From Patescibacteria group bacterium (GTDB lineage: Bacteria > Patescibacteriota > Patescibacteriia > JAHIZJ01): a DNA stretch of 64,000 bases. This document shows positions 45,404-64,000 of this stretch, piece by piece. Location of the stretch: positions 75,471 through 139,470 of the forward strand of contig JAQTMH010000002.1 in NCBI GenBank assembly GCA_028714495.1. The letters run 5' to 3'. The notes under the pieces were generated by a model. That model was not told where the DNA came from and did no database searches. It was given only the letters and a program-made list of their open reading frames with translations. Position numbers and translations under genes: made by a program. Within the stretch, counting starts at the first letter, position 1. Every line of letters begins with the position of its first letter.

Positions 45404-45407
45404 AATT

Positions 45408-45497: not shown

Positions 45498-45504
45498 AGA
45501 ACCA

Positions 45505-45558
45505 CGTTGGGTTCTGGGAACCCCGTACCCAAGCCTGCGAGCGGTACGGGGTTAATTG
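45505..45558. repeat. two adjacent GC-rich palindromic hairpins (REP-like) 3' of ahcY
   Basis: CCCAGAACC-acgttg-GGTTCTGGG (9-bp stem) and AACCCCGTACC-N13-GGTACGGGGTT (11-bp stem). Confidence 0.55.
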
Positions 45559-45560
45559 CC

Positions 45561-46820
<1,260 letters not shown>

Positions 46821-46857
46821 TTAGTTTATTGGTTAATTTGTTAATTGGTTGATTTGT

Positions 46858-48516
46858 TTACTCTGTGAATTGGAAGGTGGAAAGAAGCTGTGTGCGGAGT
46901 GAAGCATCACTATAGAATGCGTTTGTAGTATTGTCGCACTCACCGAAATACAATTTCATTATCTTATCGGTAGAAAGTGCTGTTTGAATCATATCTCCCC
47001 CGCAACCCGCGTCGCCTTCGCGGTACTGATAGCCGCTTTGCGTCCCTACTGTCACGGTGGTCGTAGCCTGTTTACCATAGATGCCTATGATGTTATTTGG
47101 ATCGAGTGGTCCAGCTATAAAATTAATCTTGAATGCCTTGGAGTGGTCCGTAGCTGAGAATGACACTCCATCAGCACCGGTAATGTTGGCATAGGTCATA
47201 TCAGCTGGATACCTCAGAGAAAAATGATGCTCAGTGTTCGTATATGTTAACCAATCCGCAGTTTCGTCGGTGAATTGGAAAGTGGAGAGAAGTTGGTCGA
47301 TGTAATTCAGATTATTCTCTGTTTCGGCGGTCAAGTTTGTACGATCATACAAATTCCTGAGATCGTTTCTTCGGGCGCTCTCATTTTGATCCTCGCTCCC
47401 TAAACATTCTTGCGAAGATGGCAATGAGGCTGATAAAAGAAGACCGACATAATCCCCTGCCGTAAGATTAAGCCGGACTTCTCGGAGATTCCAAAACGAG
47501 CATTCATCACCCCAGGCAACAAAGGCATCATAAGTCTGTTGGCCATCAATCGTTGTGCGTCGGCAAATGTTTGTTGCCGTATCATTGAGGACACCTTCGT
47601 TTTCGCACCCTAACGCGAGGTTCTCGCCGCCATTGTATTTTAATTGCTTAAACTGGTTAAAATCACTCGAGCTTCCAATGAACGAAATACTCGCGGCTTG
47701 CGTAAAGTTGATTTGAATGGCCTTACCAGAAAATATTTTCGAACCTGTTTCTTGAACACTCATTGACGAGTCAATGGCTTTTGCGGTCACCTCACCCCAA
47801 GCTGGTGGATAGCTAAAAGAAATTCTAAGGTCTGCATTCGTATATGTTTTCCAGTCAGCGGTTTCGTCGGTGAATTGGAAAGAAGCCACCAATTGAGTAA
47901 AGTCGTCATGTGAGGGAACCGCTGTAACATTTGCCGAGTCATATTCCAAACCCCAGGTTTTACCGTTGTGGTTGAAATAATAATAATCAATAGTGGCTGA
48001 TGTCGCACCCTTGACCCTATGCTTACCAACACCGAGCATACCAGTTATGCGGTAGGCGGTTTCACCAGCGACAGTGGTTGTGGTTGGCTCTAGATTGCCA
48101 CCTGCTTGACTCGAAGCGAAAGCTGAAAGATCACCTTGGTATGTATCGTATAATACGACTCCAATCGGACCAGGCCCAACCGCATCAGTGTACCTCGGAC
48201 CATTCTTGTCCGGATCGGTATTGGCGATTATGCGAACGGCCGTACCATTTGTGTATTTTCGGACAACTGCTTGATTCGGATATTCAAAACTAATGCCAAG
48301 GTCGGCATTAATATATGTGTTGTTTGTCGCCGTATTCGTGTTCTTGTTTGATTTAATCGTTAAACCGGCAGTATTGTTGTCATCAAGTTCTGTGAAAGTA
48401 TTGTAAAAAAAGAAAGCGCCGCCGGCAAAAAGGGCAAAAGCGATAACAATCGCCAGAGCGATGACAGGAGAGAAGCCGGGAAAAGTAATTTTGGGTTGAA
48501 TTTTCTTTTTTGTCAT
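46858..48516 (-). CDS. surface-anchored protein (N-terminal TM, N/T-rich linker) with three tandem copies of an uncharacterised 'W-TYTN ... FQFT' domain
   Basis: Domains start at ...NNTYINADLGISFEYP, DETADWKTYTNADLRISFSYP and DETADWLTYTNTEHHFSLRYP. They end at QLVASFQFTD, QLLSTFQFTD and QLLSTFQFTE; the last is the C-terminus. Confidence 0.6.
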   Translation of the reverse strand: MTKKKIQPKITFPGFSPVIALAIVIAFALFAGGAFFFYNTFTELDDNNTAGLTIKSNKNTNTATNNTYINADLGISFEYPNQAVVRKYTNGTAVRIIANTDPDKNGPRYTDAVGPGPIGVVLYDTYQGDLSAFASSQAGGNLEPTTTTVAGETAYRITGMLGVGKHRVKGATSATIDYYYFNHNGKTWGLEYDSANVTAVPSHDDFTQLVASFQFTDETADWKTYTNADLRISFSYPPAWGEVTAKAIDSSMSVQETGSKIFSGKAIQINFTQAASISFIGSSSDFNQFKQLKYNGGENLALGCENEGVLNDTATNICRRTTIDGQQTYDAFVAWGDECSFWNLREVRLNLTAGDYVGLLLSASLPSSQECLGSEDQNESARRNDLRNLYDRTNLTAETENNLNYIDQLLSTFQFTDETADWLTYTNTEHHFSLRYPADMTYANITGADGVSFSATDHSKAFKINFIAGPLDPNNIIGIYGKQATTTVTVGTQSGYQYREGDAGCGGDMIQTALSTDKIMKLYFGECDNTTNAFYSDASLRTQLLSTFQFTE

Positions 48517-48531
48517 AATACGAAATTATAA

Positions 48532-50148
48532 TTAGTCCTTAACAGTGAATTTTATAACCTTTTGATTTTGTGACACTAGTAGGTTATAGTTAAGCCCAAT
48601 TGCAATATCTTGTACCCACTGCGCCCGATAAAAAATTTGTTTTGCATTTGTAAACTTTTCTCCATCAAAAACATACGTATCTCCAACAGTACCGATATAC
48701 CAGTATTTTTTATCACTCGCGATTGTCGTCACACTCATTTCTTCTCCTGTATCAGTCACTGTTTTATTACCGTCGAATTTATAAACATGTGCATTTTCCT
48801 GGCCGCGTGTTCCGAGAAGCCAATATGATCCATTCCATGCACCCTTGCTGATATGATAATCATTAAGAGCGGATACACGGGTAATGTTATCCCCATTATA
48901 CCAATATGCTTTTCCATCGTAAGTCAAAATGAGCCATCTTGCGCCGTCCCAAATGGCCTCCTCAATATTTTGAACATTATTATCTAATTGGTCTGGTATC
49001 TGGCTGGTAAGATCGGTGAATGTCGATCCATCATAACGGATCAGTTGCCCAAGCCTGTTCCCGAGGAGCCAATATTGGCCGTTCCAGCCGATGGCATCAA
49101 AACCCGTTAAACCAGACGAATTGGGCATTTGGCTGGATAAATTGATCATCGTGTTCCCATCAAACTCGAGAAGGGGCGCGTTCGGACTTTGAACGAGTGA
49201 AATAATCCAGTTCTGGCCATTACTTCTCAAGTTAGCCACTGATCGGTATTCTGGTCTATCAACCAAAGGTAATTTATTGGTAAGATCCACAACCCCGTTA
49301 GAATCATACTGAAATAGTTTACTGTTTGTTCCACCGATCAACGCGGTCGAACCATTAATATTAACTGTTTCTATTCCATTTCCACCAAAACCAGAAAATA
49401 ATCCACTGATATCCTCAACCTCAAGGTCTTGCAAATCCTCTATGCCAGTGAATTGGAATGTTGAAAGAACCAATTCAGCAATAGATCCTTGTTCAGGATG
49501 AACAGTTGTCTGAAGTTTGTAGTTTATTCCGTTCCGTTCAATACATAGGATATATTGAACATTGCCCTTATCGTCAATTTTTTGTCCGCGCGTTCCTTCA
49601 ACACTATCGATTGTTGTCTTGCTGGTATTGCTTAAATCCTGTAGGCACCATGACTGTGCTTGATTAGTCTGTATTTCAAAATCAATATAATACATACCCA
49701 ACTGTAAAGTGGGCAAATATCTATCGTTATATTCATCAATATTGTAGAAATTATTCATCTGAATGTGTGTGCTTGTCGATATTGATGTTTGTCTTAAATC
49801 TGGTGGATATTTAAATGAGACACTCTCGATAGTATCGGTATATGTATCCCAATATTTCAGTCGTTCATTGGTGACTAACGAGTTCGTATTCAAATTTACG
49901 CTAGAATTAGTGTTTCTGTTTAGGTTTGCATCGAGATCGTCATTTAGATTGGTGCTTGCCACCGTATTGGTATTATTGTTCGTTTGAATTGATGTAATCG
50001 TGTTGGTATTATCATTTTTAGTCTGAATCGATAGATAATAAAATACTCCGCCGACGATCAAAGCGATGGCAACTACTATGACTATCCCAATCGCCGATGA
50101 AAACCCTGCTTTTGAAGTTTTAGTTGTCTTTTTCTTCGTTCTTTTCAT
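48532..50148 (-). CDS. surface-anchored protein, paralogue of the previous one: TM, N/T-rich linker, one W-TYT...FQFT domain, C-terminal W-repeat (beta-propeller-like) domain
   Basis: KYWDTYTDTIESVSFKYP ... ELVLSTFQFTG. Then repeats NGQNWIISL / NGQYWLLGN / DGARWLILT / NGSYWLLGT / KKYWYIGT. Confidence 0.6.
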   Translation of the reverse strand: MKRTKKKTTKTSKAGFSSAIGIVIVVAIALIVGGVFYYLSIQTKNDNTNTITSIQTNNNTNTVASTNLNDDLDANLNRNTNSSVNLNTNSLVTNERLKYWDTYTDTIESVSFKYPPDLRQTSISTSTHIQMNNFYNIDEYNDRYLPTLQLGMYYIDFEIQTNQAQSWCLQDLSNTSKTTIDSVEGTRGQKIDDKGNVQYILCIERNGINYKLQTTVHPEQGSIAELVLSTFQFTGIEDLQDLEVEDISGLFSGFGGNGIETVNINGSTALIGGTNSKLFQYDSNGVVDLTNKLPLVDRPEYRSVANLRSNGQNWIISLVQSPNAPLLEFDGNTMINLSSQMPNSSGLTGFDAIGWNGQYWLLGNRLGQLIRYDGSTFTDLTSQIPDQLDNNVQNIEEAIWDGARWLILTYDGKAYWYNGDNITRVSALNDYHISKGAWNGSYWLLGTRGQENAHVYKFDGNKTVTDTGEEMSVTTIASDKKYWYIGTVGDTYVFDGEKFTNAKQIFYRAQWVQDIAIGLNYNLLVSQNQKVIKFTVKD

Positions 50149-50161
50149 GGTTTGTAAAGTA

Positions 50162-51106
50162 TCAAATCTTTATATCTTCATGAAAATTTTCCTTGTACCG
50201 ATTGATAAACTCCTGCGTTGTATACGACTGTTCCTGCGTGCCATAGTACTCGATCGGATAAACCGCGGTTAAGGCGGCCAGGCGGCCAATTACCTCCAGG
50301 GAATAACTGCCTAAAAAACCCTTGATCAATCCAGCTCGATAAGCGTCTCCGGCGCCGGTTGGATCCTTAATCTCCCGAGGCTTGGCAATCGGTATCTGAA
50401 AACCCTTGTCTTTGGTTTCGATTAATGAACCAGCCTCGCCCTTGGTGGTAATGACCAGCTCGGTTTTTTTTAAAATGTCTGACTTGGTTAAACCGGTTTT
50501 TTTTAAAATCAAACCAATCTCATAGTCGTTGCCGATCACGATGCGCGCTCCCTGGATGGCAAATTTCAAATGATCAGCTGAAATTACGGGAATCTGCTGG
50601 GCCGGATCGAAGATGTAGGGTATGCTCAAACGCTGGTATTCCTTAGCATAATATAGCATATCATCCACGTTGCCGGCGACCACTATTCCGAAAAGTCCTC
50701 CGGTTTGCTTTTTTATCGCTTCAATATCGACATGGCTGGCCTCTTTCATCGCGCCCGGGTGGAAAGCGGTAATCTGGTTGTCGTCCTGGTCAGTCATAAT
50801 ATAAGCGCCGGCCGTGTGATCGTCATTTATTTTTATATGGCTTATGTCTACTCCATGCTGATTCAGCCAGTCGCGATAGGGTGAAAAATCTTTCCCGGCC
50901 GTAGCCAAAATAATCGGTTTTTCTTTTAGCAGTGAGAGGTTATAGGCAATGTTACCGGCGGTTCCGCCAAAATTCTCCCTCAGATTATTTACGTGGAAGC
51001 TGACGCTAAGCACGTGGATTTTTTCCGGCAGAATATGGTCTTTGAACCGTCCGGGAAAATCCATGATTCGATCATAGGCTAGTGAACCGGAGACGAGGAT
51101 TTTCAT
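50162..51106 (-). CDS. PfkB-family carbohydrate/sugar kinase
   Basis: Ribokinase-like fold; DPTGAGDAYRAG anion-hole motif near the C-terminus. Confidence 0.8.
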   Translation of the reverse strand: MKILVSGSLAYDRIMDFPGRFKDHILPEKIHVLSVSFHVNNLRENFGGTAGNIAYNLSLLKEKPIILATAGKDFSPYRDWLNQHGVDISHIKINDDHTAGAYIMTDQDDNQITAFHPGAMKEASHVDIEAIKKQTGGLFGIVVAGNVDDMLYYAKEYQRLSIPYIFDPAQQIPVISADHLKFAIQGARIVIGNDYEIGLILKKTGLTKSDILKKTELVITTKGEAGSLIETKDKGFQIPIAKPREIKDPTGAGDAYRAGLIKGFLGSYSLEVIGRLAALTAVYPIEYYGTQEQSYTTQEFINRYKENFHEDIKI

Positions 51107-51192
51107 TTGAAATTAAGAATTCAGAATTTAGAAGTAAGAATGAATGTATTTGACAAAGTCAAACACTTAAATTATTCATTCTTAATTATCAA

Positions 51193-51675
51193 TTATAAAT
51201 TGTTTTTCTTCCAGTCAAACCCGATTGTCTGATCATCAGGCGCTAGGCGCTTTTCATCCGGGTTTTTAATGTCATACGGTTCGGTCGTGTGATAAAAAAG
51301 CAGCACCGGCTCTTCGCTCAAAACTTTGTAGCCGTGCGCCACGCCAATGGGAATGCGAACTACCTTGTAATCGTCCTGGCCGGCGAAAACAACCTGGGTT
51401 TCGCCCTTAGTCGCGGAATCTTCCCGCAGATCATAAAGCACGATCATCGCTTTTCCCGTGGCCACGAACCAAAGATCCTCCTGCCGCTCGTGGTAGTGGA
51501 AGGCCTTGATCGTACCTTGATAAGCCACCGTGAAAGTGGTTTGGCCGAACTTCTTGAGCAAGTCCTCGTCGTTTCGAATCACCTCCATCAGGAAACCTGG
51601 TTTGTCCGAATCCTCTTTCCGATCGGGTATGTCTTGGTGGACTTTTAAAGATTTAATCTGTACACCATGGATCAT
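51193..51675 (-). CDS. rfbC: dTDP-4-dehydrorhamnose 3,5-epimerase-like cupin (short RmlC)
   Basis: HYHERQEDLWFVATGKAMIVLYDLR...VRIPIGVAHGY; 160 aa. Confidence 0.75.
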   Translation of the reverse strand: MIHGVQIKSLKVHQDIPDRKEDSDKPGFLMEVIRNDEDLLKKFGQTTFTVAYQGTIKAFHYHERQEDLWFVATGKAMIVLYDLREDSATKGETQVVFAGQDDYKVVRIPIGVAHGYKVLSEEPVLLFYHTTEPYDIKNPDEKRLAPDDQTIGFDWKKNNL

Positions 51676-52402
51676 GGCCGGTATCTTTAATGGTCTTGGC
51701 TACGAGTTGTCCCGCCTCTAATAAACTTTCGAAAGATTCGCCGCCGTCTCCCCACCAACCCTTGAGCACGCTGTAAGTCATGGTACTTTCCTTGATGAAA
51801 TAATTATTTACGTCAGTGATTTCGAGTTCACCGCGTTTCGACGGTTTGAGGGTATTTACCACATCAAATACGCTACTGTCATACATGTACAAACCGATAA
51901 CCGCTAAATTGGACTTTGGTTTTTTCGGCTTTTCTTCAATGTTAATGATGCGGTCGCCGTCAATCTCCGCGATGCCTAGAGATTGCGGATATTTCGTCTC
52001 CTTCAAAAATATCTTTGCCCCGCTTGGCTGTTTTTCAAAATCTTGAACCGCCTCTTTTATGTCATCAACTAGGATATTATCGCCCAACATCACAATAATC
52101 TTGCCCCCGTCGATAAAATCCTTGGCCAAACCCAGGGCTTGGGCGATTCCCCCCGGTTCTTCTTGCACTTCATACGAGAATTTTACGCCAAATCTTTTTC
52201 CTGAACCCAGTAATTCCAGCAAATGGCCTACATGTCCTTTTCCGGAAACCACGAGAATATCCTCGATGCCCGCTTTTTTTAAAGTCGCGATCGGATAGTA
52301 AATCATCGGTCTATTAAACACCGGCAAAAGGTGTTTATTTGTCACCCGGGTGAGTGGGGCTAAACGCGAACCAGTCCCCCCGGCTAAAATTACGCCTTTC
52401 AT
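51653..52402 (-). CDS. rfbA: glucose-1-phosphate thymidylyl/uridylyltransferase-like sugar nucleotidyltransferase (short RmlA-like)
   Basis: MKGVILAGGTGSRLAPLTRVTNKHLLPV is a nucleotidyltransferase signature; 249 aa. Confidence 0.8.
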   Translation of the reverse strand: MKGVILAGGTGSRLAPLTRVTNKHLLPVFNRPMIYYPIATLKKAGIEDILVVSGKGHVGHLLELLGSGKRFGVKFSYEVQEEPGGIAQALGLAKDFIDGGKIIVMLGDNILVDDIKEAVQDFEKQPSGAKIFLKETKYPQSLGIAEIDGDRIINIEEKPKKPKSNLAVIGLYMYDSSVFDVVNTLKPSKRGELEITDVNNYFIKESTMTYSVLKGWWGDGGESFESLLEAGQLVAKTIKDTGHDPWCTD

Positions 52403-52418
52403 AGTTTTTTATTATGTG

Positions 52419-52658
52419 TTAATGGTTTTTTAGGTCGTCTCGTAGCAAGCTAGTTAATAAGCCACTGATCAATGTTACCACCAGCAAAATCGACAAGTCA
52501 AAGTAGTTTGAGACGAAGTTTTCAAATATTTTATCCAGCAATAATAAGCCTAAATAGGTTACCAGCGAACTAATAAATATTTGCTCAGTTAACTTTTTTA
52601 GAAACCAGAAAAGGCTTTGGCTGCTGGTGGCTACTGGTTTGGCTTCGGTCTGGCTCAT
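52419..52658 (-). CDS. small membrane protein (2 TM), hypothetical
   Basis: 79 aa, hydrophobic; 3-nt gap to the upstream gene. Confidence 0.45.
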   Translation of the reverse strand: MSQTEAKPVATSSQSLFWFLKKLTEQIFISSLVTYLGLLLLDKIFENFVSNYFDLSILLVVTLISGLLTSLLRDDLKNH

Positions 52659-52661
52659 TTC

Positions 52662-54347
52662 TTAAAAAATCTTTTTTAAAAATGACTTAAATCTGGGCAG
52701 TAGATTGCTGAAGGTAATCGGATCTTTTTCAAACTTTACCGAGACTTCATTAATCTTGAATATTCTGTTGTTCTCGACCAAACCCGGCAAATGAACCATA
52801 AATCTAACAGTATTATTTTCAGTGTACAAATAGGGCACCTCAACTGTCTGGCTCACCACTTCCCAGTTTCCTTCATGGAGAGCTTCCGGGTAATCGGCGA
52901 TAATGTAATCATATTTATCAATATCCGATTGTTTCATAATAACGCTTAATTCACTGATTCCAAAGTACGGATCAAAGTACTGTTCTGGCTCAAACGAGAA
53001 AAAACCGTTGCCTCTAATGAAAATATCGTTTTTCGGCGACACAATCTCCTGAATTTTTCCAGCTCCGCCGGTTTCCACCGAATATTCTTTGTGAAGTTGA
53101 TCTATTTTTACCTCAGCTCCACCGATTTTTACCGTTTGAAAACCGTTGGCATGAGCGGTGCGCACTTGAAAACTATTTCCGTTTGAATAAATCGTCGTTG
53201 GCCGCTCCACCAAATCAGGAAAAGCTCCACGATACTCGTTATTATCAGTCAGGTAAAGGAAATCGGCGAAAACTATCAGGTGTTGTTTGGTTTCGATTTT
53301 CCGTATAAATATCTCATCGTTTTTTATGCCCAAACGGATGCGATACAAACCGTTCGCTGGCTTGGGAATAGATAATTGGACTTCTTTCTGGACTGATGGC
53401 TTACCGTTGGCGGAAGAATTACCATCATCAGCTACTTCAATGCTTTCCACCTTTTCCTCACCCTTAAATACGTCAATTGCGAAATCATCCGCGCCTGAAT
53501 GCCGATTTATATCCTGAATGAAAAATTTAAAGTCGAGCGGTTCATTCTCAAGGTAGGCATATATCTCATGCTCACCCCTGATGCTTGAATCAATAGTGGT
53601 AATCTCCTGGGATGACTGATAGTCGGGTATTTTCAGATATGGACTTAGATCAATATTACTGCGCAGGACTTTTGCGTGGTTCGGAATTCTATTTAAAAAT
53701 TCTTTTATACTGGAAGAGGTCGCTCCGTTTTCTGGTTCGTCCAATCGATCGTTTAAAGTACTCAACTCGGCCTTCAACCTTGAGATCTCACCGCTGTTTA
53801 GGCCACCCTCTTTCTCCTCTTCAGTTTGAATCTGCTCTTCAAGCTTATTTATTTCCTGGTCCAAAACCATAGCCTCGTCATCTCGCTGGTACAAAACCAG
53901 ATTGTCTTCGCGGATTTTTTTCCAATAGCCAGGCAGGTTTTCCAGAGTCGAATTATAAACCCCAAGGTTTTTAAAATAATTATCTCCGCCCTTTTGGGTA
54001 ACGCCCAATATTATATTGTTTTGCCCTGATGGATTCTGATATTTCAAAGTAACTGTGGCTTTTGGAAATACCCGGGGAACTTTTACGTCAAAATAGACGG
54101 GTTCCTGGGTGATATAGCGAAAATAGTCCATTGTCCCCTTGGCCGATCCGATCAATTCGTCTTTCTCTTTTGAAGCGAAATTTTGAACCAGGGGCGATTC
54201 CTGGTCCCCCACCCGATAAACCACCATCATTGAACCGAATGGCACGAAATTTTTATTCAAAAGCCACACCACAATCGCAATCGGGGCAATTATAAAAATT
54301 ATTCCGGTTATCCGCAAAGCTCTTTTGGCTGATTTGCTTGGTTCCAT
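52662..54347 (-). CDS. hypothetical membrane-anchored extracytoplasmic protein (561 aa) with a coiled-coil segment
   Basis: Single N-terminal TM (ITGIIFIIAPIAIVVWLL); coiled coil at about residues 160-210; no recognisable catalytic motifs. Confidence 0.55.
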   Translation of the reverse strand: MEPSKSAKRALRITGIIFIIAPIAIVVWLLNKNFVPFGSMMVVYRVGDQESPLVQNFASKEKDELIGSAKGTMDYFRYITQEPVYFDVKVPRVFPKATVTLKYQNPSGQNNIILGVTQKGGDNYFKNLGVYNSTLENLPGYWKKIREDNLVLYQRDDEAMVLDQEINKLEEQIQTEEEKEGGLNSGEISRLKAELSTLNDRLDEPENGATSSSIKEFLNRIPNHAKVLRSNIDLSPYLKIPDYQSSQEITTIDSSIRGEHEIYAYLENEPLDFKFFIQDINRHSGADDFAIDVFKGEEKVESIEVADDGNSSANGKPSVQKEVQLSIPKPANGLYRIRLGIKNDEIFIRKIETKQHLIVFADFLYLTDNNEYRGAFPDLVERPTTIYSNGNSFQVRTAHANGFQTVKIGGAEVKIDQLHKEYSVETGGAGKIQEIVSPKNDIFIRGNGFFSFEPEQYFDPYFGISELSVIMKQSDIDKYDYIIADYPEALHEGNWEVVSQTVEVPYLYTENNTVRFMVHLPGLVENNRIFKINEVSVKFEKDPITFSNLLPRFKSFLKKIF

Positions 54348-54411
54348 GGCTTGAAAAACTATTTTCTGATATCGCTAGAATAGCACAATTCTATCAATAA
54401 ATCCAGGCTCT

Positions 54412-56094: not shown

Positions 56095-56266
56095 ACTATC
56101 TCATAGTTTACACGTTTTTCGACATAATTCAAACACCCTTAGGCATACTAAATTGTCCTACCCAGCAATCCCTCTCGTGTAATTGCTGACCTCTCTATCC
56201 CTTGCCAAAGAATGGCCTTTTGTGGTTAAATATAAACGTAAATCAAAATTAAATAGGCAAGGAACC

Positions 56267-56356
56267 ATGAAATTTTTAGTTACCGGCGGCGCTGGAGCCT
56301 GCCCCACACCCCGGCAAGTTAATAGAATCATTTATCAACATAATTACTACTTATGA
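56267..56356 (+). CDS. 29-codon upstream ORF / 5' gene stub duplicating the first 10 residues (MKFLVTGGAG) of the downstream epimerase; its stop overlaps the epimerase ATG (ATGA)
   Basis: Translation MKFLVTGGAGACPTPRQVNRIIYQHNYYL; AGGAA 3 nt upstream. All six nucleotide differences against the epimerase's first 10 codons are synonymous. Confidence 0.4.
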   Translation: MKFLVTGGAGACPTPRQVNRIIYQHNYYL

Positions 56357-57279
56357 AATTCTTAGTAACCGGTGGTGCGGGGTTTATTGGCTCTCATCTG
56401 GTCGAAACCCTGATCAAACAAGGCAATCAAGTCCGAATTTTAGACAATCTCTCAACCGGCAAACGAAAAAATCTGCACCCAAAGGCCGAATTCATCGAAG
56501 CAGACATACGGAACCTTGATCAAACACGCCCGGCTTTTGTAGGGATTGACGGTGTTTTCCACGTCGCCGCTCTTCCCCGTGTCCAGGCTTCAATCGCTAA
56601 TCCCCTAGAATGCAATGGTTCAAATATCGATGGCACTTTAAACGTAATCTGGGCGGCCAAGGAAGCAGGTGTGAAAAAAATTGTTTACTCAGCCTCCTCA
56701 TCAGCTTATGGAGATTCGAAAGAGCTGCCTCTGAAAGAAACGATGAAGTCTGATCCGATCAGCCCCTACGCTCTCCAGAAATACGTCGGCGAGGTATATA
56801 TGAAATTAGCCGCCATGTTCTGGGGATTGGAAACAGTCTCACTCCGTTATTTCAACGTCTTTGGTCCGAATATGGCCGCCGAAGGAGCCTATGTTACAGT
56901 CATCGCCATATTTAACAGGCAAAAGCTTAATAATCAGCCACTAACTGCCACTGGAGACGGCGAGCAAACCCGTGATTTTACCTATGTCGATGACGTTATC
57001 CGAGCCAATTTATTAGCCATGGCTAGCACAAAAGTCGGCCAAGGCGAAGTTATTAATATCGGTAATAGCGACAATCGCAGCGTGAATTACATCGCGAAGG
57101 TAATCGGCGGGCCAGTCGAACATATCGCGGCGCGTGTCGAACCGCGCAACACTCTGGCTGACACCAGTAAAGCGAAGGAGCTTATCGGCTGGCAGCCTCA
57201 AGTCAGCTTCGACGAGGGTTTAAAAAGAACTATTAAATGGTATCAAGATAACGCGAATGAATTCATTACCCGAAAATAA
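56353..57279 (+). CDS. NAD-dependent epimerase/dehydratase (GalE/WbpP-like UDP-sugar 4-epimerase family)
   Basis: MKFLVTGGAGFIGSHL Rossmann N-terminus, S-x24-YxxxK (SPYALQK); 308 aa. Confidence 0.85.
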   Translation: MKFLVTGGAGFIGSHLVETLIKQGNQVRILDNLSTGKRKNLHPKAEFIEADIRNLDQTRPAFVGIDGVFHVAALPRVQASIANPLECNGSNIDGTLNVIWAAKEAGVKKIVYSASSSAYGDSKELPLKETMKSDPISPYALQKYVGEVYMKLAAMFWGLETVSLRYFNVFGPNMAAEGAYVTVIAIFNRQKLNNQPLTATGDGEQTRDFTYVDDVIRANLLAMASTKVGQGEVINIGNSDNRSVNYIAKVIGGPVEHIAARVEPRNTLADTSKAKELIGWQPQVSFDEGLKRTIKWYQDNANEFITRK

Positions 57280-58213
57280 ATCGATTTTAAAATATTCAGT
57301 CATTGTCCCAGTTTATAACGAAGAAGGGGCAGTAACCACACTCCATGCCGAAATAAAGTCGGTCATGGAACGCTTGGCCGAACCCTACGAAATTATCTTT
57401 GTTGATGATGGAAGCAAGGATAAAACATACGATAATCTTTTTACTCTCTCCCCTATAAAAATAATCCGCTTCCGGAAAAACTACGGTCAGACTGCGGCGC
57501 TGGATGCCGGTTTCAAAAACGCTCAGGGAGAAATCTTTATTACCATGGATGGCGATGGACAAAACGATCCGGCTGACATTCCGCGCCTGCTCAAGAAAAT
57601 GGATGAGGGCTATGATCTGGTTTCAGGCTGGCGTAGAAATAGAAAGGATTCATATTCGAAGCGATTTATATCCCGCGGCGCAAACTTGCTTCGCAAGTTC
57701 TTCGTCGCCGACCATATTAGAGATTCGGGCTGTACTCTCAAGGTTTACCGGCGAGAGTGTTTTGTCGATCTCGATCTCTTCGGTGAAATCCACCGTCTCA
57801 TACCGGCGGTACTGGCCTGGAAAGGCTTTAAAATCGGCGAACTAGAAGTCAATCATCGGCCGCGTCTTCACGGCAAAACAAAGTACAATTGGAAACGCAT
57901 GCTAAAAGGCCTCATTGACATGATGAGTGTCTGGTTCTGGCGGAAATACGCCAGCCGACCCCTGCATCTCTTTGGCGGGCTCGGTATTTTGTTCGGCAGT
58001 ATCGGATTCATTCTTGGTCTTACGCTGACTGTCCTGCGAATTTTACGAATTATCTCATTACAGAACAGCATTTGGCCGTTGGTGGCCGTCTTTCTCATCC
58101 TCGCTAGCATCCAGCTTTTTGTTTCGGGACTCCTGGGCGATATTGCGGTTAAAACATACTATAATGGCAAACGGAGCGTTTACACCATCCGGGAAATAAT
58201 TGAGAAAAAGTAA
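57257..58213 (+). CDS. GT2 polyprenol-phosphate glycosyltransferase (GtrB/ArnC/Dpm1-like) with C-terminal TM helices
   Basis: YSVIVPVYNEEGAV..., IFVDDGSKDKT and DGDGQND motifs; 2 C-terminal TM helices. Confidence 0.85.
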   Translation: MNSLPENKSILKYSVIVPVYNEEGAVTTLHAEIKSVMERLAEPYEIIFVDDGSKDKTYDNLFTLSPIKIIRFRKNYGQTAALDAGFKNAQGEIFITMDGDGQNDPADIPRLLKKMDEGYDLVSGWRRNRKDSYSKRFISRGANLLRKFFVADHIRDSGCTLKVYRRECFVDLDLFGEIHRLIPAVLAWKGFKIGELEVNHRPRLHGKTKYNWKRMLKGLIDMMSVWFWRKYASRPLHLFGGLGILFGSIGFILGLTLTVLRILRIISLQNSIWPLVAVFLILASIQLFVSGLLGDIAVKTYYNGKRSVYTIREIIEKK

Positions 58214-59359
58214 TTGGAGAAGTCAGTGAAACGACGCATTTTAATGCTTAATTATGAGTTCCCGCCGCTTGGGGGTGGGGCCGGGAATGCCACTTATTAC
58301 CTATTAAAAGAATTCTCTAAAAATCCCGACGTTGAGATCGATCTTGTAACTTCTTCAACGGGCAAATATAAGGAATATAGGTTTTCCGATAACATCACAA
58401 TATATTTTTTGGATATTGGAAAAAGCCCTGATTGGCAAAATCAGTCTGCCCGTGAATTGCTTACTTACTCTTGGAAGTCATTTTGGAAATCACACTCCTT
58501 GCTGCGAAAAAAAAATTATCATCTTGTCCACGCGTTTTTCGGTATCCCCTGCGGATTCATCGCTCTTCTACTAAATAAACCATACCTTGTTTCCCTACGT
58601 GGGATGGATGTGCCATTTTACAGCCAGAAATTCCACTGGCTTGATATCTTGTTTTTCCGCTGGTTAAGTGCACTTATCTGGAAAAGGGCTCAAATCGTAA
58701 TTGCAAATTCCCAAGGATTATGCGATTTGGCCTATCAGTCATACGCAAAAAAGAAAATAGACATTATCCCAAACGGTGTTGATACCGAACAATTCAAACC
58801 GAGATCAAAACAAAACAACATTTTTACTGTCTTGACCGTTGCCCGTTTGATACCACGGAAAGGAATCCAATATCTCGTCGAGGGTTTTGCAAAATTTACT
58901 GCTAAATTTTCCGAGAGCAAGTTAATTATCGTTGGTGATGGACCGATGAAAAATCAACTTCAGCAAAAAGCCGTCGAGCTACGGATTGACGACCGAATCG
59001 AATTCCCCGGTAATATTACCCATGACAAACTGCCTGGAATTTACCAAAAAGCTGATGTCTTCGTCCTGCCCTCATTAAACGAGGGTATGAGCAACTCAAT
59101 ACTGGAAGCCCTGGCCAGCGGCTTAGCGATTATCGCGACACCGACTGGTGGAAGTTCGGAACTGATCGATAAGGACAATGGAATAATTATTGAACCTAAA
59201 AATGCTCAAGCCATTACTTCGGCCTTGGAAAATTGCCTAGGCAATCAGAATAAACTGGCAAAAATGAAAATAAACAGCCGTGAAAAATCTGAATTATACA
59301 GCTGGCGCCGGGTAGCCGAAAAATATTATTCAGTTTATAAAAAAGTATGTGCGGAATAA
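58214..59359 (+). CDS. glycosyltransferase family 4 (GT-B)
   Basis: EGMSNSILEALASGLAIIATPTGG is the GT4 E-x7-E region; 381 aa. Confidence 0.85.
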   Translation: MEKSVKRRILMLNYEFPPLGGGAGNATYYLLKEFSKNPDVEIDLVTSSTGKYKEYRFSDNITIYFLDIGKSPDWQNQSARELLTYSWKSFWKSHSLLRKKNYHLVHAFFGIPCGFIALLLNKPYLVSLRGMDVPFYSQKFHWLDILFFRWLSALIWKRAQIVIANSQGLCDLAYQSYAKKKIDIIPNGVDTEQFKPRSKQNNIFTVLTVARLIPRKGIQYLVEGFAKFTAKFSESKLIIVGDGPMKNQLQQKAVELRIDDRIEFPGNITHDKLPGIYQKADVFVLPSLNEGMSNSILEALASGLAIIATPTGGSSELIDKDNGIIIEPKNAQAITSALENCLGNQNKLAKMKINSREKSELYSWRRVAEKYYSVYKKVCAE

Positions 59360-61212
59360 ATGGAATCGTAAAATTTGGCGACCAACCGGTCAGGGAAAAA
59401 GAGATCAGGAAAATGAACATCAAAATAAAGCATCGCGGACCTGACGATACCGGCGTTTTTATTGATAATGGCGTTGGACTGGGGCACAACCGCTTATCAA
59501 TTATTGACCTCACACTGCGCGGCCATCAACCAATGAGCTACACCTATCAGGGACGGACAGTGGTTATCACCTACAATGGAGAAATTTATAATTTCCAGGA
59601 GCTTCGTTCTGATCTTATATCCAAAGGGTACCGCTTCACTTCACAAACTGACACTGAGGTGATCTTGGCCGCTTACCTAGAATACGATACAGCCTGCTTA
59701 CAAAAATTCAACGGTATGTTTGCTTTCGTCATCTATGACGTCACAAAGCGAATTCTTTTCGGAGCACGAGATCGATTCGGAAAAAAGCCTCTTAAATATT
59801 ATCTGGATTCCGACAGGTTTATTTTCAGCTCGGAATTGAAGGCGATACTATGTTGTGGGGTAAAAAGAGAAATCGACTATTTGGCGATCAATGATTATCT
59901 TACCCTTCAATACGTTCCGGCGCCAAAGACTGGATTTCAGGGAATTTTTAAGCTGCCCCACGCACATTATTTTGTTTTAAATTTAACCACAAATAAATTC
60001 ACGATAAATCGTTACTATGATATTAACTATACAGACAAACTAGATCTTGCCGAGGCGGAATGGATTGAGGTAATAGAAAATCAGATCAGCCAAGCGGTAA
60101 AACGAAGGCTAATTTCTGATGTACCACTTGGTGCTTTTTTGTCCGGCGGAGTTGATAGTAGCGCTATTGTCGCCTTTATGAGCAAGCAAGTGACTAAAAT
60201 AAAAACCTTTACGATCGCTTTTGACTATAAGGATTTCAATGAAAGTCATTTTGCTCGTCGGGTTGCAGACCAGTATCACACAGATCATACGGAATTTAAT
60301 GTCCGATCCACGGACTTACTCAAATATATAGATTCTTTAGTGGAGCATTTTGAAGAACCCTACGCTGATAGTTCCCAACTACCGACCTATTTACTTTCGA
60401 AATATACGCGCGAACACGTCACGGTCGCATTAAGCGGCGACGCTGGCGATGAAAATTTCGGTGGCTATGATAAATACCGCCGCCACGTATTATTACGACG
60501 CTACCGACCACTCATCCACCTCCTAGCTATTGCGCAACCGTTGATTGGTTGGAGCTCGAAGCGTCTGACAAACGATTTTCTTGATCGACTTTCAATTTTC
60601 CTCCAGACTGTTCGAGCGACAACCCCCATGCGTCATTATAACTTCACATCGTATTTCGACGAATTTACGAAGGTCAATCTATATACTTCTGAATTCGCCG
60701 AACGGGTAATTCATCGCGTGAATCCGTTTGAGATGATAGCTAATACTTCCTTAACTGAAATGGATACGGTTTTTCACCTAGATTTCAATACCTACATCCC
60801 CGACGATATTAACGTTAAAGTTGACCTTGCCAGCATGGCGAATGCTCTGGAGGTTCGCGCGCCACTACTGGATTATGAGCTAGTCAACTTGATGGCGCGC
60901 ATGCCGTGGCAGCTAAAAGTCGGTATGATAAACAGCAAGATCATTTTTAAAAAAATGCTAAGAAGGTATCTACCTCATGAAATTCTTTATCGCAAAAAAT
61001 ATGGATTTTCCGTCCCCTTAAAACATTGGTTTAGGAATGAATTAAGAGATTTCGCCAAAAAAGTTGTGACGCAGGACAATGGGTTGGTTTTAAAGATTTT
61101 TAAAAAAGAAAAAATTCAGAAGCTTTTGCACGATCATCAAAAAGGCAAAGATAATTCGAAAAAGATCTGGTCCCTCATGGCGTTAAATATTTGGCACCGA
61201 CAAAACTTTTAA
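59347..61212 (+). CDS. asnB: asparagine synthetase (glutamine-hydrolysing) family amidotransferase
   Basis: N-terminal MCGI (Cys2 Ntn amidotransferase), SGGVDSS PP-loop; 621 aa. Confidence 0.88.
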   Translation: MCGINGIVKFGDQPVREKEIRKMNIKIKHRGPDDTGVFIDNGVGLGHNRLSIIDLTLRGHQPMSYTYQGRTVVITYNGEIYNFQELRSDLISKGYRFTSQTDTEVILAAYLEYDTACLQKFNGMFAFVIYDVTKRILFGARDRFGKKPLKYYLDSDRFIFSSELKAILCCGVKREIDYLAINDYLTLQYVPAPKTGFQGIFKLPHAHYFVLNLTTNKFTINRYYDINYTDKLDLAEAEWIEVIENQISQAVKRRLISDVPLGAFLSGGVDSSAIVAFMSKQVTKIKTFTIAFDYKDFNESHFARRVADQYHTDHTEFNVRSTDLLKYIDSLVEHFEEPYADSSQLPTYLLSKYTREHVTVALSGDAGDENFGGYDKYRRHVLLRRYRPLIHLLAIAQPLIGWSSKRLTNDFLDRLSIFLQTVRATTPMRHYNFTSYFDEFTKVNLYTSEFAERVIHRVNPFEMIANTSLTEMDTVFHLDFNTYIPDDINVKVDLASMANALEVRAPLLDYELVNLMARMPWQLKVGMINSKIIFKKMLRRYLPHEILYRKKYGFSVPLKHWFRNELRDFAKKVVTQDNGLVLKIFKKEKIQKLLHDHQKGKDNSKKIWSLMALNIWHRQNF

Positions 61213-61221
61213 AATTACTAT

Positions 61222-61929
61222 ATGGACTTTATAAAAAAAGGATGGAAAAGCTTTTCCGATAAAATGGGCGGCAGGCTGATTTATTGGCTCAGCGTATCGC
61301 ATCAATACCAGCTGTATCGAGCATATCACCGGATATTTAAGAAACATATTAAACCGGGACAAGAGCTTATAGACGTCGGCGCTGGACGGTTATTTTATCG
61401 TCGTATAATCCAAAATTATACAAAGAACTACAAAAGTATCGACGTCCAAAAAACTCATCCGGAAATTGATTTTATTGGAAGCAGCTCACATACCGGGCTA
61501 CCCGATAATTCGTACGACATAGTTTTTTGTTCAATGGTACTCGAACATACACCCAATCCCCAGGAGAGCTTTAAAGAATTCTTTCGTCTATTGCGACCCG
61601 GCGGCATAGCAATCATTGCCGTCCCCTTTTTAATATATCTTCACAACGAACCTCATGACTATTATCGCTATACCAAATATGCTTTGCGTCTGTTTGTTTC
61701 ATCATCTGGTTTGCAGGAAATTACACTTGATGAAATAGGCGGGATATTCGGTGCTTTCGGCAGTGTTGTAGCCATGGCATTGATCGGCCTAACCTGGAGA
61801 ATTCCGGTAATAAACTGGATAGTCTTTGCGTTCAACATGGGGATTCAGCTGATTCTATTGACTCTTGATATGCTATTCCCAACTAAAAAAATATTCCCGG
61901 CTAATTATCTACTGGTTATAACAAAATGA
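61222..61929 (+). CDS. class I SAM-dependent methyltransferase
   Basis: ELIDVGAGRLFYRR (motif I) and LLRPGGIAII (motif II/post I). Confidence 0.7.
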   Translation: MDFIKKGWKSFSDKMGGRLIYWLSVSHQYQLYRAYHRIFKKHIKPGQELIDVGAGRLFYRRIIQNYTKNYKSIDVQKTHPEIDFIGSSSHTGLPDNSYDIVFCSMVLEHTPNPQESFKEFFRLLRPGGIAIIAVPFLIYLHNEPHDYYRYTKYALRLFVSSSGLQEITLDEIGGIFGAFGSVVAMALIGLTWRIPVINWIVFAFNMGIQLILLTLDMLFPTKKIFPANYLLVITK

Positions 61930-62144
61930 ATAAACGGATATGTTTTTTTGCTCCTGATATGGCAGAACTTTTCTTTCCCGAATTTCGCAAAGTAAAATTT
62001 GGCGGATCTGAAGTCCAACCGCACATGCTGGCAAAAGAACTGGCGCGGATTTGCGGATTTTTCTGTTTCTGCGGTTACAATGCTTCAACTATCTTTCTTG
62101 GTCTTTTTATTAGATACCGATATTATGGCAAATTATTTTCATAA
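61926..62144 (+). pseudogene. N-terminal fragment of a GT4 glycosyltransferase gene (truncated remnant)
   Basis: MNKRICFFAPDMAELFFPEFRKVKFGGSEVQPHMLAKELARICGFF resembles a GT4 N-terminus (GGxExx...LAxxLA). It then degenerates and stops after 72 codons. ATGA overlap with the methyltransferase stop. Confidence 0.5.
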
Positions 62145-62243
62145 ATAACATGCTTTTTTCATATTTTTATATCGCTCTGGATAAAATCTTTTTTACCGCC
62201 AAAATCCTGCCGTTAAATTATTTAGTAATCGCGAGAAAATAAT

Positions 62244-63344
62244 ATGAGAATCGGCATTGCTGCTAGAGGGCTTTCGGAATTATGCGGCGGCGTGAAGCAA
62301 TATATCGAAAGTCTGACCAAATCTTTATTGCAAATTGATCATGAAAATCAATACTTTATTTTTTATGATAGCAAAACTCCTCAAGCAAAGTTTGACCAAG
62401 ACAAAGAAATCCTCTTAAAAACCAAGAATAAGCTCTGGTATGATTACGTAAAGTTGCCGCGAGCATTAATAAAACATAAAATCGATATATGCATTTTTCC
62501 GAAAAATGTTGTACCTTTCAACATAAAATGCAAGTCAATCGTGATTATTCACGATCTTCTTCATATCATGGATCCAAAAGTTTATAATCGGTTTGATTCT
62601 TTTTACATGCAATTAGCAATACCTTTTTCAGTAAAAAAAGCCGATATTGTTGTAACCGTCTCTGAAAATACTAAAAAAGATCTTCTAAAAATAACCGGTA
62701 TAAATGAGAAGAAAATTCACGTTATACATGAAGCGGCAGACGAAAAGTATCGAGTCATTCAAAATCACAATGAAGCCAAGAGACAATTATTGCATAAATA
62801 CCACATCACCTCCCCTTTTCTTTTATATGTCGGCTCGCTATCACCAAGAAAGAATATCCCGTGTTTGATTAAGGCCTTCGAAATATTAAATAAAACAAAC
62901 AACGTTCCTAGACAACTTGTACTGGCCGGTGGTAAAAGTTGGAAAGAGAAAGAAATTCTTAGGCTAATTAGAATATCTCCGCAATCTAAAAATATTAATT
63001 TAACCGGATTCATTACCGATGACGATTTGCCACTAATTTATAATCAAGCCGAGCTATTTATATATCCCTCACTCTACGAAGGATTTGGATTACCGATCTT
63101 GGAAGCCATGGCTTGCGGCTGTCCTGTTGTCTCCTCAAATTCAAGTTCATTACCGGAAGTGGCCGGAGACGCCGCGTTGTATTTCGATCCCACCAATGAA
63201 CATGAACTAGTAAACAAACTCTGTGCGGTAGCCGCAAACGATGAACTAAAGAAAAATCTTATTACAAGAGGATTAGTAAGAGCGAAACAATTCAAGTGGG
63301 AATATGTCGCTCAATCGATAATTAAAATCTATCATGAACTCTGA
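62244..63344 (+). CDS. glycosyltransferase family 4 (GT-B)
   Basis: C-terminal EGFGLPILEAMACGCPVVSSNSSSLPEV is a GT4 signature; 366 aa. Confidence 0.85.
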   Translation: MRIGIAARGLSELCGGVKQYIESLTKSLLQIDHENQYFIFYDSKTPQAKFDQDKEILLKTKNKLWYDYVKLPRALIKHKIDICIFPKNVVPFNIKCKSIVIIHDLLHIMDPKVYNRFDSFYMQLAIPFSVKKADIVVTVSENTKKDLLKITGINEKKIHVIHEAADEKYRVIQNHNEAKRQLLHKYHITSPFLLYVGSLSPRKNIPCLIKAFEILNKTNNVPRQLVLAGGKSWKEKEILRLIRISPQSKNINLTGFITDDDLPLIYNQAELFIYPSLYEGFGLPILEAMACGCPVVSSNSSSLPEVAGDAALYFDPTNEHELVNKLCAVAANDELKKNLITRGLVRAKQFKWEYVAQSIIKIYHEL

Positions 63345-63459
63345 TTGCTTGATGGTAAAGTCGAGAAAAAATATTTTTTTCTAATACTAGCAATAATTAA
63401 GACAAGAGATTCCTATTTGGATCAAAATTCAAAGTAGAATTAAACAATAAAAAAATACT

Positions 63460-64000
63460 ATGAATGAAGAACAATATGAAAATCTAACAGTATGTCCTAA
63501 TTGTGGTGGAAATAAAATATCGATGATTTTAAAAACTAGATATTTTTTAACAGACCAAAAAGACTTATTCTATTTAACCAAATGTAGCGATTGTTCTTTG
63601 TTTTTTCAAAACCCACGAGTAAAAGAAAATTATATTCATAATTATTACCCTGATTCTCTTCATTATTATGATTATAATGCCAATAACCATAAATTCTTTT
63701 CTAAAAGTGAATTAGAATTTTTAAGGAGAAATTGGGGTTATAGTTCTGACGGAATGATAAGGAAAGGTCCATTGTTAAATTACATAACTAAAAGAAATTT
63801 GATGATAAAACTAGTTCCAAAAAACGTGGAAAATGGCTCTCTGTTAGAAATTGGCTGTTCTTATGGACGTTATTTAAAAGCAATGAAGGAACTGGGGTGG
63901 GTAGTAAAAGGGATTGAACAAAACAAAAAGTCCGCAGATTATGCACATAATGTATTCAATTTAAACGTTCAGAATACAAATTTCGAGAAAGTTGACTTCG
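63460..64000 (+). CDS. SAM-dependent methyltransferase with N-terminal Cys4 zinc-ribbon (Methyltransf_13-like), 3' end truncated by window edge
   Basis: ATG at 63460; CPNCGG...CSDC zinc ribbon; LLEIGCSYGRYL motif I. This region is markedly more A/T-rich than the rest of the window. Confidence 0.7.
   Translation, partial: MNEEQYENLTVCPNCGGNKISMILKTRYFLTDQKDLFYLTKCSDCSLFFQNPRVKENYIHNYYPDSLHYYDYNANNHKFFSKSELEFLRRNWGYSSDGMIRKGPLLNYITKRNLMIKLVPKNVENGSLLEIGCSYGRYLKAMKELGWVVKGIEQNKKSADYAHNVFNLNVQNTNFEKVDF

Follow-up and report, generated by a model that had tools for sequence, protein, structure and literature searches.

A conserved GT-C glycosyltransferase module linked to dTDP-rhamnose genes, beside a variable sugar arm, in Patescibacteria

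Patescibacteria (the candidate phyla radiation, CPR) represent much of bacterial diversity and lead a life attached to other cells, but their envelope chemistry is hardly characterised. A 64 kb stretch of a metagenome-assembled genome of this group, called the window below (mean GC 0.449), encodes two GT-C glycosyltransferases, GTC1 (54412–56094, minus strand) and GTC2 (25919–27823, plus strand), and two membrane-anchored proteins with Asn/Thr-rich linkers, Surf1 (46858–48516) and Surf2 (48532–50148). Which acceptor would these enzymes serve? An earlier note on this DNA had proposed that positions 46858–63344 form an island dedicated to the O-glycosylation of Surf1 and Surf2, with GTC2 as a member of the same system. 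We observed instead that the locus is made of two parts, a GTC1 module kept across the phylum and a strain-variable arm divergent from it. We give an even chance to the reading that the region is a rhamnose-linked envelope-glycan locus, which would work like the GT-A/GT-C systems of streptococcal and lactococcal rhamnose-containing cell wall polysaccharides (Rha-CWPS). Outside the island, the window contains ribosomal genes, the operon of a type IV pilus and a dcw/mur cluster.

GTC1 relatives were sought by a pattern scan in which each GTDB species was represented by a single genome, and which returned at least 507 stretches encoding such a protein. The best 80 of these 507 stretches were taken with flanks of up to 10 kb, and the proteins of the window were compared by BLASTP with all open reading frames (ORFs) of the 80 loci; the 56 loci that extend at least 8 kb downstream of GTC1 are called informative. 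Gene classes were called with Pfam and NCBIfam models, and all the classes listed in the earlier note were present. The closest GTC1 relative among the homologues was just 42–44% identical, and the named homologues were Patescibacteria without exception. Across loci, GTC1 is followed by a protein with carbohydrate-binding-module (CBM)-like domains (X561, for its 561 residues), a small transmembrane (TM) protein, optionally RmlC and AhcY, then RmlB, RmlD and RmlA; a PEGA-domain protein encoded on the other strand closes the cluster. In the informative loci the neighbours were RmlB (45), RmlA (41), RmlD (37), the small TM protein (36), PEGA (34), X561 (33), RmlC (19), AhcY (14) and PfkB (2). The GTC1-X561-small TM trio was contiguous and co-oriented across lineages in which GTC1 identity is 30–44%. 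The module kept across the phylum thus comprises GTC1, X561, the small TM protein, the dTDP-L-rhamnose genes, AhcY/PfkB and PEGA; the partners conserved with GTC1 are these proteins and not Surf1 and Surf2. In the window, GTC1 to RmlD lie on one strand throughout, with gaps of 3–157 nt or short overlaps. The genes are as follows.

54412–56094, minus strand: GTC1, polytopic GT-C glycosyltransferase and conserved core of the locus (Pfam PMT_2, E 1e-14)
52662–54347, minus strand: X561, directly downstream of GTC1, with an N-terminal anchor, CBM-like beta-jelly-roll (beta-sandwich) domains and a coiled-coil insert
52419–52658, minus strand: small 79-aa protein with two TM segments, a gene call on the source contig; it follows X561/GTC1 in 36/56 loci
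51653–52402, minus strand: RmlA-type glucose-1-phosphate thymidylyltransferase (NTP_transferase 193 bits; rmlA_long 243 bits, cut-off 320)
51193–51675, minus strand: RmlC-like cupin of the dTDP-4-dehydrorhamnose 3,5-epimerase family (dTDP_sugar_isom 69 bits; TIGR01221 53 bits, cut-off 156)
50162–51106, minus strand: PfkB-family kinase (Pfam PfkB; best NCBIfam match a nucleoside kinase)
45561–46817, minus strand: AhcY adenosylhomocysteinase (TIGR00936 650 bits, above the cut-off of 498), within the cluster in 14/56 loci
44405–45403, minus strand: RmlB dTDP-glucose 4,6-dehydratase (TIGR01181 471 bits, above the cut-off of 365)
43492–44316, minus strand: RmlD dTDP-4-dehydrorhamnose reductase (TIGR01214 290 bits, above the cut-off of 224)
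42104–43495, plus strand: PEGA-domain membrane-anchored protein with one N-terminal TM segment (Pfam PEGA, E 4e-12), convergent with the rml genes

The four Rml families are all present and syntenic, as the earlier note had stated in claiming a full rmlABCD set for the locus. That claim holds for the families and less so for its details: RmlB and RmlD passed their equivalog cut-offs and lie outside 46858–63344, whereas RmlA and RmlC were top matches that scored below theirs. The small TM protein, for which no Pfam family was found, occurs elsewhere either in the two-TM form or as a form of about 140 residues with four TM segments. Among longer homologues, no fusion of GTC1 to X561 or to the small protein was found. 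The PfkB-family protein is probably a nucleoside (adenosine) kinase that acts with AhcY in the salvage of adenosine and S-adenosylhomocysteine, as it directly adjoins AhcY in three related loci (L022, L044 and L064); in view of this adjacency and of the nucleoside-kinase best match, a role as sugar kinase was considered less likely. One X561 homologue (P0157, 698 aa) ends in a LytR_C domain (PF13399) and has linkers rich in S/N and in Pro/Thr, which hints weakly at a connection with the attachment of wall polymers.

The second part of the locus is the arm transcribed away from GTC1, whose first genes are separated from GTC1 by a 258-nt divergent region.

56353–57279, plus strand: NAD-dependent sugar-nucleotide 4-epimerase, TviC/GalE-like (Pfam Epimerase 203 bits; TviC and GalE models below cut-off)
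57257–58213, plus strand: GT2, ArnC/GtrB/DPM1-type polyprenyl-phosphate sugar synthase, predicted (Pfam Glycos_transf_2, residues 14–169)
58214–59359, plus strand: GT4 (a) (Pfam Glycos_transf_1 and Glyco_transf_4), 0-nt gap after GT2
59347–61212, plus strand: AsnB-type glutamine amidotransferase (Asn_synthase 334 bits; TIGR01536 504 bits, above the cut-off of 267)
61222–61929, plus strand: S-adenosylmethionine-dependent methyltransferase (Pfam Methyltransf_11/23) with a hydrophobic C-terminal half by hydropathy
62244–63344, plus strand: GT4 (b) (Pfam Glycos_transf_1; GC 0.361)
63460–64000, plus strand: start of a methyltransferase-like ORF, 180 open codons to the end of the window (weak Methyltransf_23 match, E 6.7e-5; GC about 0.29)

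GC declines along this arm from 0.47 to 0.29, and its low-GC end (62000–64000) fits a recently exchanged, strain-variable segment. The epimerase and GT2 genes overlap by 23 nt, and the epimerase-GT2-GT4 set divergent from GTC1 recurred in one locus only (L008, GT2 66% identical). The upstream arm was surveyed in the 12 loci whose conserved module is most like that of the window. Their 102 upstream ORFs included hexapeptide acetyltransferases (15), epimerases/dehydratases (11), GT4s (10), DegT aminotransferases (9), GFO/IDH/MocA oxidoreductases (8), UDP-GlcNAc 2-epimerases (7), PseB-like dehydratases (5), NeuB (4) and CMP-transferases (4), and Wzm/Wzt ABC exporters stood beside GTC1 in four of the 12 loci, with a Wzt_C domain in L014. 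By content and behaviour, the upstream arm is a hypervariable surface-glycan locus of the O-antigen, capsule or glycoprotein-glycan kind. A polytopic protein of about 700 residues with a C-terminal soluble domain is divergent from GTC1 in 34 of the 48 other informative loci (for example L016 7811–9943, L025 7820–9949 and L032 7858–9954, all on the minus strand), and carries a conserved motif, GYGFDPFIHQATEK; it matched no Pfam family and has no counterpart in the window, and may be a further envelope glycosyltransferase or polymerase.

GT2 was compared with characterised enzymes. BLASTP aligned 314 residues with E. coli ArnC at 31% identity (E 5e-50), an alignment that covers the full length with both TM helices, and GT2 matched positions 3–314 of the 316 of the NCBIfam ArnC model (E 6e-50) and 2–301 of the 308 of the PgfS model (E 1e-42), in both cases below the equivalog cut-off. 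With its GT-A domain, its two C-terminal TM helices (about residues 235–263 and 270–298) and this full-length homology, GT2 has the features of the GtrB/ArnC/DPM1 type and classifies as a polyprenyl-phosphate sugar synthase, an assignment of class and not of sugar. Together with the PMT_2-clan GT-C enzymes, it bears out the part of the earlier note that saw here a cell-surface glycan island using a lipid-carrier route.

GTC1 is 100% identical to an NCBI entry named 'MAG: glycosyltransferase family 39 protein [Patescibacteria group bacterium]'. It matched Pfam PMT_2 only, and not PMT (PF02366), and the HPPLxK motif is missing from its family. In the family, P-D-E (D45-E46) is invariant in the first external loop; the GTC1 sequence SPDETANY aligns there with QPDETRYA of E. 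coli ArnT, so that both proteins have PDETxY after the first TM segment. The GTC1 and GTC2 families are homologous over about 260 residues (hhalign probability 88%, E 3e-6), and their DE motifs coincide in the alignment. Single-sequence searches of the PDB with GTC1 and with GTC2 gave nothing useful, and the GTC1 family profile matched no PDB chain, ArnT chains included, at E up to 10. Neither GT-C enzyme matched the NCBIfam ArnT model, Pfam YfhO, PMT_4TMC or MIR. The alignment of the GTC1 profile with E. coli ArnT was insignificant (hhalign probability 3.5%), so the likeness of GTC1 to ArnT consists only of the six-residue loop motif and the fold. No Pfam STT3 match and no WWDYG/WWD-type motif among the invariant columns was found for GTC1, the nearest conserved motif being YYGSW, in a membrane loop; some members of the family have precomputed Pfam STT3 matches. 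On these signals, GTC1 classifies as a divergent member of the PMT_2 clan (GT39/GT83-like).

The AlphaFold model of GTC1 is confident (pLDDT 90.8) and has a GT-C fold. In Foldseek searches, STT3A (E 6.5e-8) and ArnT (E 8.6e-8, TM-score about 0.55; both proteins end in a soluble domain) were on top, and the PMTs ranked far lower; similarity to family GT66 (STT3/AglB) was the highest of all families by a slight margin. Being close to both ArnT and STT3, the fold does not choose between an ArnT-like, an oligosaccharyltransferase-like and a PMT-like acceptor. The earlier description of both GT-C enzymes as PMT/ArnT-like is therefore right for GTC2, whose family profile matches Pmt1 (see below), and for the clan of GTC1, which had no curated ArnT match and is as near in fold to ArnT as to STT3/AglB, and farther from PMTs.

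The two proteins that had been taken for the substrates lie in the middle of the island.

46858–48516, minus strand: Surf1, with an N-terminal anchor, an N/T-rich linker and three PsbP-like modules (Pfam PsbP_2, E 1.5e-12)
48532–50148, minus strand: Surf2, anchored protein with one N-terminal TM segment and an N/T/S-rich linker of about 55 residues (GC 0.387)

Both have a Lys-rich N-terminus followed by a single N-terminal hydrophobic anchor, and their best 25-residue windows contain 60% and 72% N/T/S, respectively, the next value being 44% among the ORFs of at least 100 aa in the 64 kb; their description as type-II-anchored, N/T/S-rich proteins was thus accurate. The tracts are dominated by Asn and Thr and are richer in Asn than in Ser/Thr. 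Tandem Repeats Finder detected no DNA repeat beneath them, so they are compositional and not simple hypervariable repeats. Surf1 and Surf2 are alike over residues 1–90 only, that is, the anchor and the linker. The Surf1 modules each end in FQFT (residues 213, 413 and 548). Surf2 matched no Pfam family; its C-terminal 300 residues (approximately 240–538) contain repeated W-x-hydrophobic-G/hydrophobic motifs (NWIISL, YWLLG, RWLILT and YWYIGT), a pattern that suggests a beta-propeller-like repeat. The Surf1 family is large (978 representative clusters); an N-terminal anchor was present in 136 of the top 150, and a window of at least 60% N/T/S right after the anchor, an 'NTNT' linker, in 23 of them.

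No homologue of Surf1 or Surf2 was found near GTC1 in the 80 loci (0/56 informative loci) or near GTC2 in five homologue contexts, and phmmer searches found no relative in any of 87 related loci. In these 87 loci, about 1.4 Mb, only one of 1352 ORFs of at least 150 aa was another anchored protein with an N/T/S-rich linker. The Surf2-Surf1 pair (3.3 kb) sits exactly between PfkB and AhcY, which are neighbours elsewhere. Surf1 and Surf2 are therefore a lineage-specific insertion and not conserved partners, and an island dedicated to them, as had been proposed, does not agree with these results. They could nevertheless be incidental substrates, although the system is not organised around them. 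In the present organism their co-expression with the neighbouring genes is plausible, since they are co-oriented with these genes with gaps of just 13–40 nt and no convincing terminator flanks them in a scan of 43000–57000; promoter and terminator counts in this interval were near the shuffled expectation, so that operon boundaries around the pair could not be set. An AT-rich tandem repeat, AATTTGTTAATTGGTT (46819–46858, 2.5 copies), fills the 40-nt gap between Surf1 and AhcY, at one edge of the inserted pair.

The arrangement was then compared with known systems. Rha-CWPS loci contain rml genes, an ABC exporter, a GT-A polyprenyl-phosphate sugar synthase, a small membrane helper and a GT-C divergent in sequence (PMC9574508). 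Cytoplasmic glycosyltransferases can extend the lipid-linked sugar (WpsC-F), the small helper GacJ and a flippase are involved, and the GT-C (GacL, CsdB or WpsJ) completes the transfer outside the membrane; structure prediction recognises only ArnT and AglB as relatives of these GT-Cs (PMC9574508). The locus studied here has the same set as the GacI/J/K/L, CsdA/B and WpsA-J systems, namely rml genes, a membrane GT-A, glycosyltransferases that could extend its product, a small membrane protein and a divergent GT-C whose kin, ArnT and AglB, are recognised structurally; exporters of the Wzm/Wzt type are present in related loci. Unlike in Rha-CWPS systems, the GTC1 family is Patescibacteria-specific and has no PDB sequence match, its constant partner X561 has no counterpart in Gac, Csd or Wps, and the small TM protein, having no Pfam family, matches neither the GacJ nor the GtrA family models.

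On this analogy, nucleotide sugars would be made and tailored in the cytoplasm, and GT2 would put a sugar on polyprenyl phosphate. The adjacent GT4s could then extend it, perhaps by adding rhamnose together with amidated or methylated residues, and the lipid-linked sugar or oligosaccharide would be flipped over the membrane, where GTC1 would move it, on the outside, to an envelope acceptor presented by X561. We infer that the product of GT2, maybe extended by the GT4s and tailored by AsnB and the methyltransferases, would be the donor for GTC1, that X561 would present a glycan acceptor and that this acceptor would contain rhamnose; by analogy, the most probable acceptor would be a wall glycopolymer or glycoconjugate that contains rhamnose. 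Lipid A was set aside as an implausible acceptor, since Patescibacteria are monoderm and are not known to have lipid A.

Several observations weigh against this reading. Unlike Rha-CWPS loci, the island has no identifiable LCP ligase, no GtrA or Polysacc_synt/Wzx flippase match among its ORFs, no rhamnan-type backbone machinery or rhamnosyltransferase set and no TagO/GacO-like initiator; the only initiating phosphoglycosyl transferase of the window is MraY, outside the island. No ABC exporter is adjacent, the sole ABC-2 pair of the window (ATPase and permease, 4379–6401, plus strand) being about 40 kb away; flippases may be encoded away from the locus, as is CflA in Lactococcus lactis (PMC9574508). 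A full-length GtrB-type GT2 adjoins GTC1 only here and in L008, the candidate near GTC1 in L003 being weaker (317 aa, 26% identity), and since such adjacency is rare, the polyprenyl-phosphate-sugar donor is deduced and not conserved in cis. The fold of GTC1 is at least as near to protein-modifying oligosaccharyltransferases as to ArnT.

Other known systems share parts of this arrangement. As in the E. coli Arn system, there is an ArnC-like GT2 (31% identity, as described above) and a GT-C with the PDETxY loop and the overall fold of ArnT; unlike in that system, no ArnA, B, D, E or F gene is present. The slg cluster of Geobacillus stearothermophilus contains rml genes, Wzm/Wzt, rhamnosyltransferases with a methyltransferase cap and the O-oligosaccharyl:protein transferase WsaB, an enzyme of the Wzy_C/O-antigen-ligase type. 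The present locus resembles it in its rml genes, methyltransferases, glycosyltransferases and finishing membrane transferase, with an ABC exporter in related loci only; it differs in that GTC1 belongs to the PMT_2 clan rather than to the type of WsaB, and no S-layer gene was identified. In streptococci, GtrB/PgtC2 and PgfS/PgfM1, each a GT2 with a GT-C, O-glycosylate Ser/Thr-rich disordered linkers of membrane-anchored proteins (PMC12041528). The GT2 synthase, the adjacent epimerase and the external GT-C of this locus recall GtrB/PgtC2 and PgfS-PgfE-PgfM1-PgfM2, and the low-complexity linkers of anchored proteins that serve as substrates there are what had been proposed for Surf1 and Surf2. 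Two differences separate them: the streptococcal GT-Cs are of the YfhO type (PMC12041528), whereas GTC1 and GTC2 are of the PMT_2/PMT type with no YfhO match, and the candidate substrates here are not kept beside the enzymes and carry Asn/Thr tracts rather than Ser/Thr tracts.

What, then, could GTC1 modify other than a wall glycopolymer? It could be an envelope protein glycosyltransferase, general or devoted to S-layer, PEGA or pilus proteins, and perhaps an AglB/STT3-like en-bloc enzyme. The glycan that it moved would contain rhamnose; the GT4s would assemble it on a lipid carrier, and Wzm/Wzt or a different flippase would export it. The precomputed STT3 matches of some family members and the oligosaccharyltransferases at the top of the fold ranking agree with this proposal, and so do the S-layer-like PEGA protein at the end of the module (34/56), the low frequency of a GtrB-type GT2 next to GTC1, and the occurrence in related loci of Wzm/Wzt exporters and of NeuB and CMP-sugar genes, which are typical of glycoprotein glycans. 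GTC1 itself, however, has neither an STT3 match nor a WWDYG-type motif, its sequence signals (PMT_2, the PDETxY loop and homology with the GTC2 family) are those of a clan whose characterised members take their sugars from polyprenyl monophosphate, the Foldseek scores of ArnT and STT3 are equally good, and no acceptor protein was identified; we consider this proposal rather unlikely. The narrower possibility that GT2 and a GT-C form a dedicated O-glycosylation system for Surf1 and Surf2, like GtrB/PgtC2 or PgfS/PgfM1 on their linkers, has a real streptococcal precedent (PMC12041528), a GT2 similar to PgfS over its full length with an epimerase beside it, as PgfE in the Pgf operon, and two substrates that are embedded in the cluster, plausibly co-transcribed, without convincing terminators around them, and compositional outliers of the window; post-anchor 'NTNT' linkers also recur in Surf1 relatives. 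This was weighed against the lack of any Surf homologue near GTC1 or GTC2, the single other anchored N/T/S-linker ORF in about 1.4 Mb, the adjacency elsewhere of PfkB and AhcY, which marks the pair as an insertion, the lower GC of Surf2, GT-Cs that are not of the streptococcal YfhO type, and tracts richer in Asn than in Ser/Thr, and a dedicated system appears improbable. The earlier argument from low-complexity tracts has a precedent in GT2 plus GT-C systems, and fails on substrates that are not conserved beside the enzymes.

The genes may also form no single system, being independent envelope and metabolic genes whose synteny reflects the stable gene order of small CPR genomes. AhcY and PfkB are housekeeping salvage genes, and CPR genomes hold long syntenic blocks, an example being GTC2, which has the dcw cluster on one side and the pilus operon on the other in every case. 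Against this, the GTC1-X561-small TM trio is kept at 30–44% GTC1 identity while the flanking arm turns over wholly, the overlapping epimerase and GT2 genes face GTC1 across the divergent region, and the rml genes have no known use beyond glycan synthesis. We regard this explanation as very improbable, and retain the Rha-CWPS-like reading, at the even chance given above, for the GTC1 region.

The kind of system described here is known. In the literature found, the combination of a CPR-specific GT-C, an anchored CBM-like protein and a small TM protein, in constant association with rml genes beside a hypervariable arm, is undescribed: searches on GT-C, PMT, rhamnose and pilin glycosylation in Patescibacteria returned only genome-level remarks and no functional study, and, for pilin glycosylation, additionally a software prediction of pilin O-glycosylation in TM7x. 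The present analysis defines a conserved module that can be tested (GT-C, CBM-like partner, small TM protein, rml and PEGA), with GTC1 relatives in at least 507 species-level genomes. A conserved module beside a hypervariable sugar arm is the architecture expected of a strain-specific surface antigen, and such an antigen could govern recognition by hosts and phages. The locus also illustrates that low-complexity anchored proteins inside a glycan locus are not, by their position, evidence of being its substrates.

The second GT-C enzyme was found in a different operon, 26 kb from the island.

25919–27823, plus strand: GTC2, PMT (GT39)-like GT-C (Pfam PMT 34.2 bits, cut-off 22.7, and PMT_2)

The GTC2 family profile, compared with the whole PDB, matched only yeast Pmt1 (6p25, E 2.5e-4) and a protein O-mannosyltransferase (9i5k, E 5.8e-3). 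Residues D36-E37, H40 and N56-P-E-H59-P60-P-L-x-K64 are invariant or nearly so in the family and align with FDEVHF...HPPLAK of Pmt1. GTC2 thus resembles the GT39 PMTs (yeast Pmt1/2/4 and actinobacterial Pmt) in passing the PMT cut-off and in sharing DE...H and HPPLxK; it differs from them in having no detected PMT_4TMC or MIR domain and no linked mannose-specific donor synthase.

GTC2 opens a same-strand run, PilB-PilC-pilin-like-pilin-like-...-PilM-...-PilO (25919–36505), and is divergent from a 122-aa membrane ORF followed by MraY-MurD-FtsW-MurG-MurC. Its placement at the head of the PilB-PilC operon was kept in five of five homologues (35–60% identity, on separate contigs: L082, L084, L085, L087 and L088), and one further match at the homologue level was 97% identical to GTC2. 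The PMT signals and this constant placement together link GTC2, as a PMT-like enzyme, with the type IV pilus operon; it stands outside the island and not in the same system as GTC1, contrary to what had been proposed. By synteny alone, it is a candidate pilus-linked protein glycosyltransferase, acting on a pilin or on the pilus machinery; the pilin-like proteins downstream of GTC2 have no Ser/Thr-rich tract. TfpW of Pseudomonas aeruginosa, a pilin-specific GT-C, is likewise encoded within a type IV pilus gene cluster. The 122-aa hydrophobic ORF between MraY and GTC2 (25539–25907, minus strand) has no Pfam family, and an ORF of 116–126 aa occupied the same slot in four of five related loci.

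A PMT-like gene at the head of a pilus operon is also undescribed in the literature found. The GTC1 module and the pilus-linked PMT-like enzyme are both targets for the few cultivable CPR systems. A bolder view, which we put forward tentatively and with low confidence, is that GTC1, X561 and the small TM protein would form an undescribed, phylum-specific extracytoplasmic glycosyltransferase machine, the main route for rhamnose-containing envelope glycans, whether wall polymer or S-layer-type glycoprotein, and that a PMT-like GT-C would belong to the constant gene set of the Patescibacteria pilus operon; if true, glycosylation of the pilus or of its machinery would be general in the organelle with which these episymbionts reach their hosts.

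One sequence element is common to the two GT-C genes. The 25-nt imperfect palindrome GCCCYRTACCGAYATGGTACAGGGC occurs in exactly two copies in the window (0 expected), at 26620–26644 on the plus strand and 55810–55834 on the minus strand. Both copies are in frame, within GTC2 and GTC1, respectively, and encode P(R/Y)TDMVQG. The copy in GTC2 lies inside a 27-nt (9-aa) segment with GGCTGG repeats on its flanks, which the 97%-identical homologue lacks. In GTC1 the copy corresponds to nine residues of an external loop modelled with low confidence; duplicated Gly-Lys pairs enclose these residues, and the family consensus does not have them; GCCCYRTACCGAYATGGTACAGGGC looks like a tiny in-frame palindromic indel element.

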